Below, piece after piece: positions 1-19,899 of a DNA stretch of 20,000 nt. The stretch is taken from the IMG/VR virus record IMGVR_UViG_3300014676_000001, positions 57,432-77,431 of that record. The stretch is one strand, 5' to 3'. Position numbers and translations under genes: made by a program. A model generated the notes under the pieces. The model had not been told where the DNA came from and made no database searches. It saw only the letters and a list, made by a program, of their open reading frames with translations. This stretch comes from an uncultured virus (IMG/VR IMGVR_UViG_3300014676_000001) (taxonomy: Duplodnaviria; Heunggongvirae; Uroviricota; Caudoviricetes). Position 1 is the first letter of the stretch, and each line of letters begins with the position of its first letter.

Positions 1-14
1 TCGCACGCTTTTCC

Positions 15-132
15 GTTTTCATAGACATGGGCGTTGCTGCGGAACGGGTTCATTGGCCAATCTGCGTCGCGTATAGCGTAACGGGTTCATTGCCCAATCT
101 GCGTCGCGTATAGCGCTCATGTCTATGAGAGT
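15..132 (+). other. Long inverted-repeat hairpin (candidate structured leader or ncRNA) upstream of the J/H-like gene
   Basis: TCATAGACATGGGCG (19-33) is complementary to CGCTCATGTCTATGA (114-128) with one G-U pair. The stem extends with G-U pairs to about 15-36/111-132. Confidence 0.6.
43..115. repeat. Tandem direct duplication, period 37 bp
   Basis: AACGGGTTCATTG(G/C)CCAATCTGCGTCGCGTATAGCG at 43-78 and 80-115; 35/36 identical (g56 vs c93), separated by one base. Confidence 0.97.
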
Positions 133-160
133 TTCCTCAACACATCTAAAAGGATTCATC

Positions 161-952
161 ATGTCAGGACCTGTAAGCATCAGTCATGTAGCAACGATGT
201 CTAAACCGTTTGGTGTAAACGTCGAATGGAAATGGCCAAATGGCAGCAGCTGGTTTTCCAAGCTGGAACTGCAATGCCTCCGCGAAGACGGGCGGCTAGT
301 GAAAGAGTGCATATATTATCCGAATACTAGCCATCTTATTTCCGGTCTTAAAAGTGGTGAGCGCGTGCAGGTACGGGTGCGCATCGTCGCAGCGAACGGT
401 TCTATCCGAGACTGGCAGGTTAGTGACTGGATTCAAGGCGAATCATCTGTTGATGCTGGCGATATCGCCCAGTGGTTGGAAGACGAAATCCGGAACAGTG
501 AGACGTTTAAAGTATTTCGTGGCCAGTGCTTTATTAACGAAGCAAAGATAGGCAATGGCATCGTTTCTACGAACTATAACGTGAAGTTGAACGTCGTCGA
601 CAAAGGCAAACTGCACGAAGCTGGCATGACTCTCGGTGTTGAAGATGGCCAGAGCAACGTTGAGTTTATGGCTGATCGCTTTCATGTGCATGAAGCCGCT
701 CAATCAATTATCGGAAACGCCGTCGCAACAAAAACGAAGATAAATATCGCACTTGGCGATGAAACGAAGCAGGCCGTCATTGATGCCGTGCGTGAAAGCG
801 ATTTGTTCGCATCCCTCCAGGCAAAGATTGAAGCGCAAACAGCTTCAGTAGTTGGCTTGCAACAGGCGATGCACGAAGCTGTGAACGATGCTCTCCGCAA
901 CGCGCTCAAGCCAGGCGGTGCGGTATGGGCTCGGATGAAACATGGATTTTGA
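161..952 (+). CDS. Tail-tip-like accessory protein (gpJ-like FN3 and C-terminal segments, probably DUF1983-related, plus a tape-measure-like C-terminus), 263 aa
   Basis: ORF 119-952; ATG 161 preferred because AGGA lies at 151-154. Visible similarity to this window's gpJ (FGVNVEWKWP/FGIELNWGFP; AGMTLGVE..FMADRF/AGMGIGVE..FLADRF) and to the gpH C-terminus ([18 protein letters not shown]). Confidence 0.8.
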   Translation: MSGPVSISHVATMSKPFGVNVEWKWPNGSSWFSKLELQCLREDGRLVKECIYYPNTSHLISGLKSGERVQVRVRIVAANGSIRDWQVSDWIQGESSVDAGDIAQWLEDEIRNSETFKVFRGQCFINEAKIGNGIVSTNYNVKLNVVDKGKLHEAGMTLGVEDGQSNVEFMADRFHVHEAAQSIIGNAVATKTKINIALGDETKQAVIDAVRESDLFASLQAKIEAQTASVVGLQQAMHEAVNDALRNALKPGGAVWARMKHGF

Positions 953-981: not shown

Positions 982-988
982 GGGTCCT
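982..988 (+). other. cosQ: cosQ packaging termination subsite
   Basis: GGGTCCT, identical to lambda cosQ, followed by 23 bp (TTCCGGCAATCCGGCCTGTTACG) to the cohesive end, the same spacing as I recall for lambda. Confidence 0.9.
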
Positions 989-1011
989 TTCCGGCAATCC
1001 GGCCTGTTACG

Positions 1012-1023
1012 GGGCGGCGTCCG
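1012..1023 (+). other. cosN: cosN, predicted 12-nt 5' cohesive end GGGCGGCGTCCG
   Basis: GTTACG^GGGCGGCGTCCG directly upstream of terS. Lambda is GGGCGGCGACCT; this variant matches my recollection of the N15 end. It is followed by the lambda I2-like TCGCTATATATGAAAATTTT. Confidence 0.9.
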
Positions 1024-11058: not shown

Positions 11059-11387
11059 AATTTGCCATGAAACTGGCGCGTGAGTTCGGTCGCCCGGACT
11101 GGCGTGCCATGCTTGCTGGCATGTCCTCAACGGAGTACGGCGACTGGAAAATCTTCTACCAGGACAATTATTTTCATGATGCGCAACTGGATGCTCATTT
11201 CTCCGGTTTGCTCTACACCATCTCAACCCTGTTTTTTGCCGATCCGGAATTATCCCCGGACAGTTTCAGTATCCTTTCCCCTGCATTGGAAGCCATCGAC
11301 ATCGATGATCCGGATGACGATACGCTGATGGCGAAGGCTGAAGGTATTTCAGGAGGCGTGCGCTATGGCCCAGACGTCAGTCGGTGA
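11040..11387 (+). CDS. T: gpT region (C-terminal part of the gpGT frameshift product)
   Basis: [40 protein letters not shown]; in the -1 frame relative to G (first ATG at 11067). Confidence 0.92.
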
Positions 11388-13881
11388 TCTGGTCGTTAAC
11401 CTTGACGTTAACTCGACGAAGTTCAGCGAACAGCTCAACTACGTCAAAAAAGAATTAAAACAGACAGGAAACACGGCGAACGACGAAGCGTTACGTATCC
11501 AGCAGTCCTTCAGCCGTCAGGAGATCGCCGCACGTAAGGCGGGTATTTCAGTCGGCCAGTATACCGCAGCGATGCGTATGCTTCCGGCGCAGTTTACCGA
11601 TGTGGCCACGCAGCTGGCAGGTGGGCAGAATCCCTGGCTGATTCTGCTTCAGCAGGGTGGTCAGGTTAAGGACTCCTTTGGCGGGATCATACCGACATTC
11701 CGTGCGCTACTGGGGACTATTTCCCCGGTGATGGTGGGTATCGGTGCTTTGTCTATTGCAACAGGGGCTCTGTTCTATACCTGGTACCAGGGTTCTTCCA
11801 CACTGTCTGATTTCAACAAAACGCTGGTACTGTCGGGTAACACAGCCGGACTGACTGCCGACCGCATGCTCGTGCTGTCGCGAAACGGTCAGGCTGCGGG
11901 GCTGACGTTCAACCAGACAAGTGAAGCTCTGACGGAGCTTATTAATGCTGGCGTACGTACCGGCTCGCGCTTTGATGAAATGAGCCAGGCTGTGGCGCGT
12001 TTTACTGATGCCTCCGGCGTGCCGGTGGATAAGGTTGCTGCCGCCTACGGTAAGCTCGTAACAGACCCTACATCGGGCCTGATCGCGATGGCCCAGCAGT
12101 TTCACAACGTTACCGCAGAACAGATTGCGCATGTGGCGCAGTTACAGCGTGCCGGTGATGAGGCTGGCGCACTGCAAGCGGCTAACGAGGCCGCGACTGC
12201 CGGATTCAACGATCAGACCAAAGCCATCCGTGACAATATGGGATTGATTGAATCTTCAGCGGACTCCCTGAAGCGCGCCTTCAAGTCGATGTGGGATGCA
12301 GCACTTGATATAGGCCGTCCTGACACTGCGCAGGAGATGGTGGCAAAAGCTGAAGCAGCTTTCAAAAAGGCCGATGAAATCTGGAACCTGCGGAAGGGTG
12401 ACCGTTATGTGAACGACGAGGCACGTGCCAGGTTCTGGAATGATCGCGAAACGGCAAGACTGGCGCTGGATATGGCGCAGCAGCAGGCGGGTATTGCTAA
12501 AGCGAACGAGGAGAATGCCTCTCGTGAAGCAGCTGCGGAATCAGACCGTCAGAAATATGCCGCGCAGGCGCAGGCAAACTATGCCAAAACTCAGACAGCC
12601 CTGGAAAAATACACGGCGCGTCAGAATGAGCTTAACAAGGCGCTGAAAGAGGGCAGGATTCTTCAGGCTGACTACAACATCAACATGGCTGTAGCGAAAA
12701 AAGAGTATGAAGATACCCTTAAAAAGCCGAAGAAAACTTCTGCTGTCAGAACCCCTTCCGGTACCCGCGCGACCGACAACGCCAGTGCTCAGACTATGGC
12801 GCTGGAAGCACAACTGCGCACCCTTCAGGAGCACAAGGGTATAAATGACACCATCAGTCAGCAGCGCCAGGAGCTCTGGCGTCAGCAGTCGCGTTTTGCC
12901 GTTCTGGAAGAGGCTGCCAAAACAAGGACTCTTTCAGCAGAAGAGAAATCCCTGCTGGCCAGCAAGAGTGAAGTGCTTTCCCGGGCAGAACTGAATGCGA
13001 AGCTCGGTGATCAGATTGTGGCGCAGGAGCGGCTTAACCGGCTACAGGACACATCACAGAAGTACGTGACCCAAATCGGGGAGAAAACTCGCGCCCTGGC
13101 GGAAAGTGCTGGCATGAGTAGTCGTGCAGCACAGCGACGCAATGAAGAGGCCCAGCTTCTTCAGGGATGGAAAAATGGTGGTGGATCTGAAAAAGATGCC
13201 GGTTATCAGAAAGAGCTACAGGCACTGCATGCGTATTACGCAGAGCAGGATAAGCAGCGAGACGACTGGCAGTCCGGGGCAAAATCCGCATGGGCAGATT
13301 ATGTTGATTCTGCTTCTGATGCTTATGGCCAGATGAAGTCGTTTGCCAGCAGTACGTTTGATGGCATCGGGCAGAATATGGCTGACATGCTGACACGCGG
13401 AAAGGCTGACTGGGCTGACTTTACCCGCTCCACACTCTCTATGCTGACGCAGATTCTGATGAAGCAGGCGATGGTCGGCCTGGTGGATTCAGCCACGACG
13501 GCACTGGGGTTTGCAGGTGGAGGTTATACCGGTTCAGGCGGGAAATATGAGCCAGCTGGCGTTGTTCACCGTGGGGAATTTGTTTTCACCAAAGAGGCAA
13601 CCAGCCGGATCGGTGTCGGCAATCTCTACAAAATGATGAAGGGTTATGCCAGTGGCGGCTATGTGGGTGGAGGTTCATCTGCTGGCGTCGGTGCGCCGTT
13701 CGGTGTCAGTGTTTATGCTCCGGTGACGGTCGAGAATGCCTCCGGTGACGCACAGCAGCAAAACGACGGTAACAGACTGGGTAAGGCATACCAGCAGGTG
13801 ATTAACAAATCTGTTAACGAGGGCATTGCTAAGGCTATCCAGCCCGGTGGGCTTATCTGGAATGCGAACAATCGCAGGTAA
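11365..13881 (+). CDS. H: Tape measure protein gpH, 838 aa
   Basis: [71 protein letters not shown]; helical and Ala-rich. Confidence 0.97.
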
Positions 13882-14987: not shown

Positions 14988-15719
14988 ATGCGTCAGAAAA
15001 CTATAAACGCCATCATGGCGCACGCCGCAGCGGAATATCCGCGCGAGTGCTGCGGTGTAGTGGCGCAGAAAAGCCGGGTAGAGCGCTATTTCCCCTGCCG
15101 AAACCTCTCAGCAGAGCCGACTGAGCATTTTCACCTCTCACCTGAAGATTACGCCGCCGCAGAAGACTGGGGAACGGTGGTGGCCATTGTGCACAGCCAT
15201 CCTGATGCGACAACGCACGCCAGTGAGCTGGATAAGGCGCAGTGTGATGCAACGCTTCTGCCCTGGCATATCGTGAGCTGGCCAGAGGGGGATTTACGCA
15301 CTATTCAGCCGCGCGGGGAGTTGCCGTTGCTGGAGCGACCGTTTGTGCTGGGCCATTTCGATTGCTGGGGCCTGGTAATGAGCTACTTCCGGCAGACCCA
15401 CGGTATCGAGCTCCACGATTACCGCGTCGACTATCCCTGGTGGGAGAACGGCTACCCTGAAAACTTCTACCAGGACTGCTGGTACGAATGCGGATTCAGG
15501 GAGTTTGAAGGACCACCTCAGGAAGGTGATCTGGTCATCATGCAGGTACAGGCCGACAAGTGGAATCACGCGGGGATTTTACTGGAGGGTAATATGCTTC
15601 TGCACCATCTGTACGGTCATCTGAGCCAGCGTGTGCCGTATGGCGGATACTGGCAGGAGCGCACAATGAAAATAGTCCGTTATAAAGATGTCGGAGGCGG
15701 TGAAACATGCAGGAAGTAA
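14988..15719 (+). CDS. K: Tail tip assembly protein gpK (JAB/MPN plus NlpC/P60 domains)
   Basis: ATG 14988 after AGGAG; PRECCG, VHSHP, DCWGLV, NHAGI motifs. Confidence 0.93.
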   Translation: MRQKTINAIMAHAAAEYPRECCGVVAQKSRVERYFPCRNLSAEPTEHFHLSPEDYAAAEDWGTVVAIVHSHPDATTHASELDKAQCDATLLPWHIVSWPEGDLRTIQPRGELPLLERPFVLGHFDCWGLVMSYFRQTHGIELHDYRVDYPWWENGYPENFYQDCWYECGFREFEGPPQEGDLVIMQVQADKWNHAGILLEGNMLLHHLYGHLSQRVPYGGYWQERTMKIVRYKDVGGGETCRK

Positions 15720-16297
15720 TGAGCCGTATCGAGCTTGGTGCAGAGCTGGGAAAAACGTTTGGTAAAGTTCACTACCGCCTGATTTCTCGTGTGAGTGAGG
15801 CGGGAGTTGCACTGGCAAAGACCATACCGGGGTTTGAGCAGTTTATGATTTCCAGCCAGCGCCGTGGGCTCACTTATTCAGTGTTTAAAGGTAAAAAAAA
15901 TATCGGTGTGGATGACCTTGGCTTTCCGGTTACCGGCGATGTTATCCGCATTGTTCCGGTGATTATCGGGAGTAAAAAAGCCGGTGTATTACAGACCATT
16001 TTAGGTGCGGTTCTGGTTGCTGTAGGGGCAGTGCTTAATTTCACACCCTGGGCCGCTGCATCTCCATTCTTCTACAAATTTGGTGCTGCGGTCATGCTGG
16101 GCGGCGTTGTCCAGATGCTTTCCCCTCAACCAGGGGGCCTGGCCAGCAAACAAAGCTCAGATAACCGGGCCTCATACGCGTTCGGTGGCGTCACAAACAC
16201 CGCAGCGCAGGGCTACCCGGTACCGCTTCTTTACGGTCGCCGACGAATTGGCGGCGCGATTATTTCTGCCGGAATTTACGTCGAAGATCAGCAGTAA
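15707..16297 (+). CDS. I: Tail tip assembly protein gpI
   Basis: LGKTFG, IRIVPVIIGSKKAGVLQTILGAVLVAVG, NTAAQGYPVPLLYG. Confidence 0.94.
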   Translation: MQEVMSRIELGAELGKTFGKVHYRLISRVSEAGVALAKTIPGFEQFMISSQRRGLTYSVFKGKKNIGVDDLGFPVTGDVIRIVPVIIGSKKAGVLQTILGAVLVAVGAVLNFTPWAAASPFFYKFGAAVMLGGVVQMLSPQPGGLASKQSSDNRASYAFGGVTNTAAQGYPVPLLYGRRRIGGAIISAGIYVEDQQ

Positions 16298-16347: not shown

Positions 16348-19300
16348 ATGGCTATCTCAACTCCGATTAGAGGCCGCAAGGGCGGCAGTTCCAGTTCCCG
16401 GACCCCTACCGAACAGCCTGACGATCTCCAGTCCGTAGCAAAGGCCAAAATTCTTGTTGCGCTGGGCGAGGGCGAGTTTGCCGGGCAGCTAACAGCTAAA
16501 GATATCTACCTTGATGGCACGCCACTTGAGAACGCAGACGGATCGCAAAACTTCAGTGGCGTGGCCTGGGAGTTTCGTCCGGGGACTCAGGCGCAAAAAT
16601 ACATTCAGGGTATCCCCGGTACCGAAAATGAAATCAGCGTGGGTACCGAAGTTTCAAGTACCACCGCCTGGACACACACTTTTACCAACACTTTACTCTC
16701 AGCCGTTCGCCTGCGGCTCAAATGGCCGTCGCTTTTTAAACAGGAAGACGACGGCGATCTGGTCGGGAATTCAATCAACTACGCTGTTGATTTGCAGACG
16801 GATGGCGGCACCTGGCAGACGGTGCTTAATACCAGCGTAACCGGCAAGACTACCTCCGGCTATGAACGCAGCCATCGTATCGACTTACCGCAGGCCGGAA
16901 GCACCTGGACAGTGCGCCTGCGAAAGCTTACTCCAGATGCCAATAGCGCGAAAATTGGCGATACGATGACGCTGGAGAGCTATACAGAGGTTATTGACGC
17001 CAAATTGCGTTATCCAAATACAGCACTGCTGTATATCGAATTTGACTCCAGCCAGTTTAATGGTTCTATCCCGCAGATAGCCTGCGAACCGCGAGGGCGT
17101 GTTATCCGTGTACCGGATACGTATGACCCGGAAACCCGCACCTATAGCGGAACCTGGCTGGGAGCGTTTAAATGGGCGTGGACAGACAATCCGGCCTGGA
17201 TTTTTTATGATCTGGTGGTCAGTGACCGCTTTGGGCTTGGCAACCGGCTGTCTGCGGCAAATATTGATAAATGGACCCTTTACCAGGTTGCCCAGTATTG
17301 CGATCAGCCAGTACCGGACGGGAAAGGCGGTTCCGGAACCGAACCCCGCTATACGTGTAACGTTTATGTGCAGGAGAGAAATGACGCCTATACCGTTTTA
17401 CGTGATTTTGCGGCCATATTCCGTGGCATGACGTACTGGGGTGGCGATCAAATCGTTGCCCTGGCCGATATGCCCCGTGATGTGGACTACAGCTACACGC
17501 GCGCAAACGTTGTTGACGGGCGCCTTACCTATTCTGGTAGCACAACGAATAACCGCTATACCACAGCACTGGTTTCCTGGTCCGATCCGGGAAATGCCTA
17601 CGCAGACGCGATGGAGCCTGTATTTGAACAGGAGCTCGTGGCTCGCTTTGGAACAAACCAGCTCGAAATGACAGCCATCGGCTGCACCCGCCAGTCAGAG
17701 GCAAACCGCAAGGGGCGCTGGGGTATTCTGACCAATAACAAGGATCGTATCGTATCGTTCAGCGTTGGTCTGGATGGCAGGATTCCACAGCCTGGCCATA
17801 TCATAGCGGTTGCCGATGAGCTGTTATCCGGAAAGGTTATGGGAGGCCGCATCAGCGCCGTTAACGGTCGCGTTATCACTCTCGATCGTAATTCGGCAGC
17901 TGCTCCCGGCAGTCGCCTTATGGTTAACCTGCCGTCAGGTGCATCGCAGAGTAGAACGATACAGAGCGTTAACGGTCGGGCAGTCACCGTAACCACGGCA
18001 TACAGCGAAACCCCGGCAGTGGAATCGGTGTGGATAGTCGAATCCGATGAGCTGTATGCACAGCAATATCGTGTTATCAGCGTCACAGATAATAATGACG
18101 GAACGTTTTCGATTTCTGGCGCTATGCACGATCCGGATAAGTATGCACGTATTGATACCGGCGCCATTATCGACCAGCGGCCAATAAGTGTTATTCCTCC
18201 AGGTAACCAGTCCCCCCCATCTAACATCGTGATCAGCTCATTCTCTGTGGTTCAGCAGAATGTGAGTGTTCAGACCATGCGCGTCAGCTGGGACCAGGCC
18301 AAGAATGCCATCGCCTATGAAGCACAGTGGCGCCGGAACGACGGGAACTGGGTTAATGTGCCGCGCAGCTCCACCACATCATTCGACGTTCCGGGGATTT
18401 ACGCAGGACGATACCTGGTGCGCGTGCGTGCCATCAATGCTGCTGAAATATCATCCGGGTGGGGATATTCGGAGGAAAAAACACTTACGGGCAAAGATGG
18501 AAATCCACCTAAGCCGGTGGGCTTCACTGCTTCTGAAAACGTGGTATTCGGTATCGAACTGAACTGGGGATTCCCGGCGAACACCGACGACACTCTGAAG
18601 ACGGAAATTCAGTACAGTCTGACCGGCACCGAAGACGATGCGATATTGTTGGCTGATGTGCCTTACCCACAACGCAAGTATCAGCAGATGGGCCTTAAGG
18701 CTGGGCAGATTTTCTGGTACCGGGCGCAGCTGGTAGATCGAAGCGGAAACGAATCAGGGTATACAGACTTTGTTCGCGGACAGGCCAGCATCGATGTATC
18801 CGATACCACCGATGCAATCCTGGAGGACATGAAAGGCTCCGATACGTTCAAAGACCTGATCGAGAACGCGGTGGACAGCAATGAAAAAATTGCTGGCATG
18901 GCTGACGACATTAAACAGGCCAACGACGAACTGGCGCAACAGGCGCAGGAAATCGCCAAAAACGCCCAGGATATCTGGAAGGTTCAGACCAGCGTTACAA
19001 ACCTGTCGAGCACGGTCGGAGATGTGTCTTCTTCTCTGAGCAAGCTTGAGCAGACAGTGGCGACGGCTGATACCGCGCTGGGCCAGCGCATCGATAACAT
19101 CAGCGTGTCTGTGGACGGCATGGCGGGGGGAGTGAAGAACTCCGCTATCGCGATTATTCAGGGCAACCTGGCGCAGGTGGCCGCGCGCAAAACGCTGTCG
19201 GCATCGGTCGCCGGTAACAGTGCGCAGCTGGATCGCATTGATGAGGTGATCGTCAACGAGAAGGAGGCAACGGCGCGTTCGCTGCTGAGTGTGCAGACTG

Positions 19301-19899
19301 ACGTGAACGGAAACAAGGCATCCATCAACAGCCTGAACCAGACGTTCTCCGATTACCAGCAGGCCACGGCCACGCAGATAAACGGCATCACGGCGACCAT
19401 CAACGGGCACACGTCAGCGATCACCACCAACGCGCAGGCCATTGCGAACGTCAACGGCGACCTGAAGGCGATGTACAGCATCAAGGTCGGGTTATCCAGC
19501 AACGGCCAGTACTACGCCGCAGGGATGGGGATAGGCGTGGAGAATACGCCGTCCGGCATGCAGTCGCAGATTATCTTCCTGGCTGACCGCTTCGCCGTTA
19601 CTCACCAGGCCGGTGCCACGGTGACCTTACCTTTCGTTATCCAAAACGGGCAGGTGTTCATCAGAGACGCGTTGATAGGTGATGGCACCATCAACAACAA
19701 CAAGATCGGCAACTACATCCAGTCCAATAACTATGTCGCTGGCTCAGTCGGGTGGCGGCTGGATAAGGGCGGTACGTTTGAGAACTACGGTTCGACAGCT
19801 GGTGAGGGGTCCATGAAACAGACAAACCAGACAATCAGCGTGCGGGACTCCAGGAATGTGTTGAGGGTGCAGATCGGGAGAATCACGGGAACATGGTAA
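16348..19899 (+). CDS. J: Central tail fibre / tip attachment protein gpJ, 1183 aa
   Basis: KGGSSSSRTPTEQPDDLQS, YPNTAL, AWTDNPAWIFYD, GCTRQSEANRKGRW; FN3 region, coiled-coil region, FLADRFAV C-terminal region. Confidence 0.97.
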   Translation: MAISTPIRGRKGGSSSSRTPTEQPDDLQSVAKAKILVALGEGEFAGQLTAKDIYLDGTPLENADGSQNFSGVAWEFRPGTQAQKYIQGIPGTENEISVGTEVSSTTAWTHTFTNTLLSAVRLRLKWPSLFKQEDDGDLVGNSINYAVDLQTDGGTWQTVLNTSVTGKTTSGYERSHRIDLPQAGSTWTVRLRKLTPDANSAKIGDTMTLESYTEVIDAKLRYPNTALLYIEFDSSQFNGSIPQIACEPRGRVIRVPDTYDPETRTYSGTWLGAFKWAWTDNPAWIFYDLVVSDRFGLGNRLSAANIDKWTLYQVAQYCDQPVPDGKGGSGTEPRYTCNVYVQERNDAYTVLRDFAAIFRGMTYWGGDQIVALADMPRDVDYSYTRANVVDGRLTYSGSTTNNRYTTALVSWSDPGNAYADAMEPVFEQELVARFGTNQLEMTAIGCTRQSEANRKGRWGILTNNKDRIVSFSVGLDGRIPQPGHIIAVADELLSGKVMGGRISAVNGRVITLDRNSAAAPGSRLMVNLPSGASQSRTIQSVNGRAVTVTTAYSETPAVESVWIVESDELYAQQYRVISVTDNNDGTFSISGAMHDPDKYARIDTGAIIDQRPISVIPPGNQSPPSNIVISSFSVVQQNVSVQTMRVSWDQAKNAIAYEAQWRRNDGNWVNVPRSSTTSFDVPGIYAGRYLVRVRAINAAEISSGWGYSEEKTLTGKDGNPPKPVGFTASENVVFGIELNWGFPANTDDTLKTEIQYSLTGTEDDAILLADVPYPQRKYQQMGLKAGQIFWYRAQLVDRSGNESGYTDFVRGQASIDVSDTTDAILEDMKGSDTFKDLIENAVDSNEKIAGMADDIKQANDELAQQAQEIAKNAQDIWKVQTSVTNLSSTVGDVSSSLSKLEQTVATADTALGQRIDNISVSVDGMAGGVKNSAIAIIQGNLAQVAARKTLSASVAGNSAQLDRIDEVIVNEKEATARSLLSVQTDVNGNKASINSLNQTFSDYQQATATQINGITATINGHTSAITTNAQAIANVNGDLKAMYSIKVGLSSNGQYYAAGMGIGVENTPSGMQSQIIFLADRFAVTHQAGATVTLPFVIQNGQVFIRDALIGDGTINNNKIGNYIQSNNYVAGSVGWRLDKGGTFENYGSTAGEGSMKQTNQTISVRDSRNVLRVQIGRITGTW

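Follow-up and report, generated by a model that had tools for sequence, protein, structure and literature searches.

A tail-tip-like gene next to cos in an N15-like prophage: J-like and tape-measure-like modules and a possible mimic in tail assembly

What is the task of a small gene that resembles pieces of a phage tail tip and is positioned as the last gene before the cohesive end site (cos)? This question is raised by the open reading frame (ORF) at positions 161-952 (plus strand) of a 20,000 nucleotide (nt) stretch of DNA from an uncultured virus (IMG/VR record IMGVR_UViG_3300014676_000001, positions 57,432 to 77,431). The whole of this stretch is referred to as the window. The original prediction, made from the sequence alone, regarded the gene as a miniature composite of the phage's own tail tip, built from parts of the central fibre protein J and the end of the tape-measure protein H. 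As judged by sequence similarity, the protein is indeed composed of J-like and H-like parts, and the gene is a further member of a widespread family already known under DUF1983 and 'tail tip fiber' labels. As to function, we tentatively favour, with a probability of roughly one in three (about 0.35), a trimeric mimic which would compete at the docking step of the tape measure, most likely against other lambda-type phages.

The similarity to J is found in two major stretches, which are those aligned by eye in the original prediction. BLASTP against J from the window matched ORF residues 4-117 to J residues 721-835 (25% identity, E 8e-11), which cover the last FN3 domain and the start of the fibre (positions 18508-18852, plus strand), and ORF residues 132-183 to J residues 1036-1092 (37% identity, E 9e-8). 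A short additional match connects ORF residues 116-138 with J residues 1096-1118 (E 0.004), so that the order of the sub-blocks is swapped between ORF residues 116-183 and the start of the PF09327 domain of J (residues 1036-1118, positions 19453-19701, plus strand). The family profile also matches solved J-like chains of the lambda gpJ type (9l9p_S, E 5.4e-13; 25vf_A, E 1.3e-12; 23gd_D, E 2.3e-7). In the Pfam search, PF09327 (Phage_Tail_Tip) was assigned to residues 136-181 with 34.3 bits (cut-off 22, E 2.4e-8), while an fn3 match stayed below its cut-off. The FN3 fold at residues 10-95 is the sole confident part of the AlphaFold2 model (pLDDT 86-91), and the Foldseek matches of the model are FN3 domains.

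Only a minor part of J is represented in the 263 amino acids (aa) of the ORF, compared to 1,183 aa for J. What the two have in common is the last FN3 domain with the short neck behind it and the beginning of the PF09327 domain, which is incomplete in the ORF (profile positions 17-66 of 139, compared to 1-134 in the window's J). The hub domains FNIII-A_GpJ (PF24801) and Phage-tail_3 (PF13550) are present in J and absent from the ORF, as are the coiled coil of about 200 residues and the distal fibre end; the absence of the hub and of the long coiled coil had been stated before and is borne out by Pfam. Conversely, J does not carry the tape-measure-like end of the ORF.

The attribution to the phage's own tail tip could not be upheld. 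The ORF scores higher against J from HK639 (57.4 bits) and AsXd-1 (56.2 bits) than against the resident J (49.7 bits) and is thus not a copy of the latter; derivation from the resident J is ruled out. The family members from N15, FSL SP-016 and AsXd-1 also score best against a foreign J, and only HK639 gp13 scores best, narrowly, against its own. An identity of 25-37% to J implies an old relationship and no recent internal duplication.

Along the gene, five regions can be distinguished, all on the plus strand. The FN3 domain, which is related to the last FN3 domain of J-type central fibres according to model, Foldseek, BLASTP and profile, is encoded by positions 188-445. It is followed by neck and linker (residues 96-131, positions 446-553), which start with a J-like 'SSVD...NSETFK' and continue into the most variable, indel-rich region of the family. 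The segment resembling the lower central fibre of J (residues 132-183, positions 554-709) has the pattern Y-x-V-K...AGM-x-x-GVE...ADRF-x-V, as supported by PF09327 and BLASTP. A predicted helical region (residues 184-233, positions 710-859), for which DSSP assigns helices in a low-confidence part of the model, is conserved across the family. The best-conserved part of the family is the tape-measure-like C-terminal helix with its KPGG-x-x-W end (residues 234-256, positions 860-928).

This C-terminal part matches the C-terminal helix of the window's H (ORF residues 234-256 to H residues 810-832, positions 13792-13860, plus strand) with 39% identity and E 4e-4. As the match is short, the last ~46 columns of an alignment of 44 distinct family members were turned into a profile, which was compared with all 4,820 ORFs of at least 60 aa from all loci. 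At E <0.01, the matches outside the family were exclusively tape-measure ORFs, namely 34 ORFs of at least 500 aa and an 81-aa 3' piece of an interrupted tape-measure gene (locus L012); a 35th tape-measure ORF reached merely E 3.9. The top matches were H from N15 (E 2.8e-8) and from the window (E 5.1e-8), which agrees with the C-terminal match to gpH that had been claimed from inspection. In each matched tape measure the best-scoring stretch stops 4-5 residues before the C-terminus. In both proteins an amphipathic helix leads into (K/Q)PGG-hydrophobic-hydrophobic-aromatic, equally far from the C-terminus, and, as far as such a comparison can tell, the resemblance is short but specific. Beyond the last ~25 residues nothing of the tape measure is found in the ORF, from which the H domains TMP_2 (PF06791) and Tape_meas_lam_C (PF09718) are absent. 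Among 19 candidates, no longer protein sharing ORF residues 214-263 was found, in a search which is weak as it depends on shared words.

The position of this segment suggests what it may do. In the lambda tip, the gpI trimer (residues ~134-223) forms a tripod in the lumen and binds J by beta-sheet augmentation, and H residues 818-842 (modelled to residue 849 of 853) form a three-helix coiled coil on this tripod, according to the available passages of two reports (PMC10721106, PMC12617516); the same arrangement of tape measure and tail assembly protein is described in part of a report on an F-pyocin (PMC13455828). H from the window and lambda H are homologues (8iyk_H, E 2e-25), although their extreme ends are of different sequence types. 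By position, then, the part of H resembled by the last ~25 residues of the ORF would correspond to the C-terminal fragment docked on gpI in the lambda tip (PDB 8iyk, 8k35). The link to the gpI tripod is based on position and on the overall homology of H because the ORF end by itself misses lambda H, which has another type of end.

Tape measures encoded near the gene differ in their ends. At least four kinds were encountered (...KPGGMIY..., ...KPGTPLW..., ...RDDGAIGG... and ...SDGLLG...), and the small protein retains KPGG-L-L-Y/F/W whatever the end of the neighbouring tape measure. When 37 neighbouring tape measures from the IMG/VR loci were read by eye to their C-terminus, 29 had the same KPGG-type end and 8 did not; the end of the FSL SP-016 tape measure is also unrelated to that of the small protein.

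The family to which the ORF belongs is large. Residues 1-259 match profile positions 1-229 of 232 of phrog_13555 (E 4.9e-104), which is annotated as 'unknown function'. In a large protein collection, 665 homologues of 144-461 aa were found at E <=1e-3, mostly from Enterobacter prophages, which PGAP and the collection name 'phage tail tip fiber protein' or 'DUF1983 domain-containing protein'. Clustering at 50% identity resulted in 183 representatives. The best 150 listed comprise 107 with less than 450 aa and 43 longer ones, and the latter are mostly matched near residue 720-850, as expected for J-type fibres. A strict PGG motif occurs within the last 20 residues of 59 of these 107 small representatives, and about a dozen more have near-variants by an eye count. 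In an alignment of 27 sequences, the FN3 core and the C-terminal end (...NALKPGG followed by two hydrophobic residues and an aromatic one) are most conserved, while residues ~108-135 vary and contain many indels. In the window's protein the end KPGGAVW represents residues 250-256, and P251, G252 and G253 are present in at least 90% of the 27 aligned members.

That small DUF1983-type genes might already be annotated, with no described function, had been anticipated and proved correct. NCBIfam has no family which matches the ORF, the protein atlas returned DUF1983 and 'tail tip fiber' clusters and nothing else, and in the accessible parts of the literature on N15 gp59, phiKO2 and DUF1983 genes we found no function described for this family. 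ORF71 of the Stx2 phage Sp5 bears DUF1983 and is listed there with function unknown. No similarity at E <0.01 was seen between the gene and the small ORFs adjacent to J in N15, HK639, FSL SP-016 and AsXd-1.

The closest named relative is N15 gp59 (NP_046955), which is the last gene before cosR, in the same slot and with a nearly identical leader (terminator, inverted repeats, ribosome-binding site). It is 88% identical over residues 1-161 and ends with RPGG-I-I-W, where the window's protein has KPGG-A-V-W. N15 gp59 is shorter (207 aa); past residue ~161, an unrelated short stretch replaces the ADRF segment and the helical stalk, yet the tape-measure-like end is kept. HK639 gp13 has another N-terminal module but is 62% identical over residues 118-258, ends with KPGG-L-L-Y and is encoded between terminators. 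Its slot also differs, as HK639 gp13 and the genes from Enterobacter and E. coli prophages (PHROG 13555 / 29765) are found between the major tail gene and G/GT/tape measure. Further named members are an AsXd-1 ORF and an FSL SP-016 ORF, which its depositors noted as 'gp59 ... similar to N15'.

The phi80 member orf66 (PHI80_66), which is annotated as 'similar to N15 gp59', is the sole one with an experimental record. Its gene immediately precedes cosQ on the late strand, and the product has a PF09327 piece and ends with FPGG-V-I-W. Its N-terminal part is distinct and has no FN3 match to the window's protein. BLASTP connects it to the window's protein (E 2e-5), to N15 gp59 (E 1.4e-7) and to the AsXd-1 member (E 2e-11).

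It became evident that the family is modular, as in certain members just the FN3 head is shared and in others just the C-terminal half. About 15 FN3-headed members (P0130, P0147, P0155, P0159 and others) end in a second, unrelated C-terminal module, which suggests that the C-terminal module is swappable. This second module matches an internal stretch of a 442-aa protein from Klebsiella phage 48ST307 (named 'Gp59 [phiKO2]', L095 3245-4573), which occupies the same slot between lysis and terminase genes.

Genomic contexts were surveyed in 80 IMG/VR loci, with the gene called in 79 of them. In all 79 it is on the late strand, which it shares with all named late-gene neighbours. In 40 loci the gene is positioned between the major tail gene (V) and G/GT/tape measure, and in two more the major tail gene is upstream. 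A terminase gene follows within four genes in 24 loci, with terS from six different clusters, and four loci are short or of another kind. A survey of the family's position had been proposed on the expectation of a place next to cos; the pre-terminase slot is indeed used, but it is one of several. In the 40 V-G loci, the gene sits between near-identical V and G genes, and elsewhere it uses other slots; in its presence or absence between conserved neighbours it resembles a moron, a promoter-gene-terminator unit placed among conserved phage genes. Terminators are found on both sides in HK639 (record annotation), L016 and L022, and on the upstream side in the window's record. At the DNA level, 13 of 5,426 complete E. 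coli genomes have a match, all of them chromosomal; in the two contexts inspected (H41, H52) the gene has the tail tube gene on one side and the tail assembly chaperone on the other. A 111-aa ORF (phrog_17483, no Pfam match) is directly upstream of the gene in 18 of the 79 loci, in V-G as well as pre-terminase contexts (e.g. L044 5544-5879, L094 4155-4490). It is absent from the window and may be a cassette partner.

The ratio of nonsynonymous to synonymous substitution rates (dN/dS) was 0.38 overall and 0.30-0.47 in each of five gene regions when all usable pairs were compared, so the gene is constrained and not decaying. For a comparison with neighbouring genes, 27 loci with major tail, G and tail-terminator genes were used, resulting in 351 pairs, which are non-independent. 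In these pairs the gene has a dN/dS of 0.49 and a mean amino-acid identity of 79%, while values are 0.044 and 98% for the major tail gene, 0.045 and 95% for G, and 0.093 and 89% for the tail-terminator gene. Compared to the adjacent tail genes, the gene thus changes about ten times as fast. Only two of the 80 IMG/VR loci have disrupted copies (L028 with a frameshifted end, L068 truncated), and a further copy is cut by a contig end (L084). Frameshifted or neutrally evolving homologues, which had been named as the signature of a decayed J fragment, are therefore not what is found. We conclude that the protein is small, fast-evolving and probably dispensable, the latter being implied for a homologue by the available part of a study on phi80 (PMC11364771).

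Tai genes, as described in the same study, mostly lie upstream of the packaging module. TaiEcA (phi80 orf63) is transcribed against the late genes and has an antidote, AtiEcA (orf64). The target of Tai is J, with escape changes located at the extreme J C-terminus (V1176 in HK106). A phi80 mutant with orf62-66 deleted was plated in spot assays, and for single deletions of orf62, 64, 65 and 66 these passages report a lower titre for orf64 alone, with orf66 titres not being explicit. Tab from JBD26 is described, again in the available part of the report (PMC10884400), as an 83-residue protein which is encoded between terS and terL, has its own promoter and acts on the tape measure. Both are accessory genes in the late region or in a pre-packaging hotspot of temperate phages, and their targets, J for Tai and the tape measure for Tab, are the two proteins resembled by the ORF. 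In phi80, orf66 is three genes from TaiEcA in the same hotspot and AtiEcA is two genes from orf66 in the same late operon. The gene itself belongs to neither family. Homology to Tai is ruled out (BLASTP E 66 against TaiEcA, the one Tai variant compared). Membership in Tab is ruled out on comparison with its description, as the ORF encodes 263 aa instead of ~83 aa and is located before cos and terS instead of between terS and terL. Further, TaiEcA runs against the late genes while the ORF runs with them, and neither Tai nor Tab is described as a tail-protein mimic in these passages. Of the parallel drawn in the original prediction, the corruption of tail assembly is thus well founded and a direct kinship is not. 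The passages available from the Bil preprint name no J region that corresponds to the modules of the ORF. The window's J has the same length (1,183 aa) as HK106 J in the available part of the Tai paper, where residues 876-1183 are modelled.

Taken together, we propose that the gene product is a cytoplasmic accessory protein encoded on the late strand, which would form a trimer in which three FN3 heads are followed by a short beta segment of J type and a helical stalk, terminating in what may be a copy of the tape measure's C-terminal docking helix. A trimer with a false tape-measure end is proposed because the borrowed modules come from trimeric parts of the tip and because the tape-measure end is conserved and position-specific. 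The tape-measure-like end would be presented to J-I-L tip complexes and dock on gpI. There it would compete with the tape measure at the step which starts tube assembly, and the bulky FN3 heads might block the addition of M and V. Other lambda-type phages that share the cell, be they co-infecting or co-induced prophages, or satellites would thereby be disturbed in assembling their tails. A function in conflict is preferred over one as a structural protein or chaperone because the gene is mobile and fast-evolving and no titre defect is reported for the phi80 deletion. The apparent specificity of the C-terminal end for tape measures outside the family supports this proposal, as does, by analogy, the established interference of phage-borne accessory genes with tail assembly (Tai, Tab). 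Also in its favour, carriers with a different tape-measure end (FSL SP-016 and the 8 of 37 neighbours) need not be harmed. Of the functions originally considered, the tail-tip-assembly mimic is thus retained as the best reading, while a J/H chaperone fits poorly with fast evolution, the variable slot and the phi80 deletions.

Several observations weigh against the proposed mimicry. Not only 29 of the 37 neighbouring tape measures but also H from the window and from N15 share the KPGG-type end, so a poison made late should hurt its own phage, and an antidote gene was not identified. The gene is co-directional with the late genes, and a simple promoter scan detected no consensus sigma-70 site upstream of it in the window, L016 or L022. 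Co-variation of its end with that of the neighbouring tape measure was considered and rejected. The AlphaFold2 monomer has pLDDT <50 for most residues from 115 on and is unreliable there, and the last 51 residues of the ORF retrieved no tape measure, lambda H included, from the PDB sequences. PADLOC had no match for the ORF or for the types of neighbouring genes.

A more specific version, in which the false tape-measure end is a swappable cassette, the trimer plugs the gpI tripod and rivals or satellites build dead-end tips, is somewhat doubtful. If true, it would represent a third class of tail-assembly interference beside Tai and Tab, and the first which acts by structural mimicry of an assembly substrate. 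The FN3-headed relatives with the second C-terminal class would then be the same weapon with another docking end.

A rival explanation is that the protein acts as a counter-defence decoy. Made with the late genes, it would offer spare J and tape-measure surfaces which soak up Tai-like, Tab-like or other inhibitors and thereby spare the phage's own tails. The uniform late-strand orientation and the lack of a consensus promoter in the three leaders scanned are in accordance with this, AtiEcA being arranged likewise in the phi80 operon, as is the KPGG-type end of most neighbouring tape measures. Fast evolution and the fact that no loss of titre is reported when orf66 is deleted from phi80, studied in a laboratory host, also fit counter-defence, and the two inhibitors described act on just these proteins. 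However, the small protein has no counterpart of the extreme J C-terminus where Tai escape changes occur, and phi80 resistance to its own Tai needed orf64 and not orf66 in the passages available (PMC11364771). In addition, its J-like parts are no closer to the resident J than to foreign ones, and the tape measures from FSL SP-016 and the 8 divergent loci do not have the end which would be imitated. We regard a decoy function as unlikely, though worth consideration.

An equally uncertain explanation is that of a non-essential accessory of the virion or tail, a minor trimeric protein on or in the tail tip which attaches via its tape-measure-like end or its J-like segment and whose FN3 heads aid, e.g., adsorption. 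All modules derive from virion proteins, half of the loci (the 40 V-G loci) have the gene inside the tail cluster directly before G/tape measure, and PGAP applies the label 'phage tail tip fiber protein'. FN3 and Ig-like domains are common on phage surfaces. However, in lambda the tape-measure end is inside the tip lumen, where three FN3 domains would probably not fit beside H, and the slot is variable, with 24 loci far from the tail genes. The tenfold dN/dS compared to neighbouring tail genes is also not what a tail component would suggest. Nor is a titre defect reported for the phi80 orf66 deletion in the accessible text, and the parts of the literature on N15 gp59 and DUF1983 that were available hold no virion proteome which lists the protein.

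In some loci the gene might belong to a sugar-modifying cassette and provide a substrate, an adaptor or a targeting subunit for a glycosyltransferase-like gene downstream. A 485-aa ORF (phrog_1579) follows the gene directly or past one small ORF of ~75 aa in 11 of 79 loci (L019, L021, L031, L045, L046, L048, L051, L066, L067, L074, L083) and in FSL SP-016 and AsXd-1 (L002 5784-7241 and L004 5850-7307). A phrog_854 'glucosyltransferase'-type ORF occurs within four genes downstream in 6 loci. Such a partnership is improbable, as the 485-aa ORF is lacking in the other 68 loci and in the window, N15, phi80 and HK639, and as its Pfam match to GT2 is below cut-off (20.5 compared to 23.3 bits).

Even less probable is a role in tail-tip assembly, be it as a chaperone of J, I or H or as a placeholder for them. 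Its similarity to J and H and its adjacency to the G/GT chaperone genes in 40 loci would be in line with such a role, but a chaperone should neither evolve so fast nor ignore the end of the tape measure with which it works. The gene is also absent from lambda-type phages with normal tails, is rare in E. coli (the 13 of 5,426 genomes), and its phi80 homologue was deleted with no titre defect reported in the available text. That the gene is a functionless, decaying leftover of a J/H rearrangement, as its patchwork make-up and its identity of 25-39% to J and H might suggest, is most improbable and, as far as can be judged from sequence, ruled out by the 665 homologues of similar length, a dN/dS below 1 in every region, only 2 of 80 copies disrupted and the conservation of start, ribosome-binding site and leader.

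The gene itself is well delimited. The longest open frame reaches an upstream ATG at position 119, but the start at 161 is better supported because a Shine-Dalgarno-like AAAAGGA (positions 148-154, plus strand) is found 7 nt upstream and because the equivalent Met starts 25 of 27 aligned homologues. As AAAAGGA is kept in all four N15-type leaders and the frame is intact, an uninterrupted ORF with its own ribosome-binding site, as initially described, can be confirmed for this member of the N15 gp59 / phi80 orf66 / PHROG 13555 family.

The N15-type leader is nearly invariant across four phages apart from a duplication in the window. The window begins within a rho-independent terminator, the 3' half of which, with its T-run at 8-14, is at positions 1-14 (plus strand) and which closes the lysis/gp57-like genes; its stem starts 12 nt upstream of the window (L006 11988-12007). 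This terminator is unchanged in the four N15-type upstream regions, and the N15 record annotates a stem-loop at the same place. In the N15 leader, a pair of 14-15-nt inverted repeats (CTCATAGACATGAG and CTCATGTTTATGAG) have starts 61 bp apart. In the window, the left arm (15 nt, positions 19-33) corresponds to the N15 CTCATAGACATGAG site in degenerate form and the right arm is at positions 114-128, with a CTCATGTCTATGAG core at 116-129. The arms are spread by a 37-bp tandem duplication (2.1 copies, positions 39-115, plus strand; 95% matches by Tandem Repeats Finder), while N15, L013 and L071 have a single copy. Each 37-bp copy contains a weak promoter-like pair, TTCATT and TATAGC with 17 nt in between, which was read by eye and is not reported by the simple promoter scan. 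The leader may thus be a candidate regulated promoter.

At the other end, the stop codon is 60 bp upstream of a 12-base cohesive end, GGGCGGCGTCCG (positions 1012-1023, plus strand). Because this is identical to the N15 sticky end, the ORF is the last gene before cos. A cosQ-like conserved block (positions 982-1010, plus strand) is common to N15 and phi80, and the phi80 annotation puts cosQ here. In the parent record, the gene is preceded by holin, lysozyme, a spanin-like ORF, two small ORFs and the terminator, so that its assignment to the accessory interval between lysis genes and cos was correct. N15 has the cytosine methyltransferase gene 58 between gp57 and gp59 (L001 2335-3846). The window's record is without gene 58 and leads from a gp57-like ORF (L006 11443-11957) via the terminator to the gp59-like gene.

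The window represents the 3' terminal part of a 77.4-kb virus record and extends from the end of the lysis/accessory region across cos to the end of J. Its late genes start with terS (1100-1606), followed by terL, portal, head genes, V and G/GT; the tail genes continue with H (11365-13881), M, L, K, I (15707-16297) and J (16348-19899). As the parent record holds an ORF for a ResT/TelK-type protelomerase (~38.0-38.6 kb, L096; a 638-aa open frame), it is, on this similarity, an N15-like linear-plasmid prophage. It is much longer than N15 (46.4 kb). A scan of the contigs of the genome for the gene returned a single locus.

For annotation, there is a practical consequence. The label 'phage tail tip fiber protein', which is attached to hundreds of these genes, is misleading because the J hub and the distal fibre are absent. 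Annotation pipelines and predictors of receptor-binding proteins which are based on DUF1983/PF09327 will miscount these genes as host-range determinants. If the gene is a dispensable decoration, the finding is an ordinary one. If, however, it does mimic the docking end of the tape measure, the family would represent an easily assayable class of factors in conflicts between phages or between phages and defence systems, which would target the initial step in assembling a siphovirus tail and would provide a natural probe for the tape-measure end which engages the gpI/J hub.

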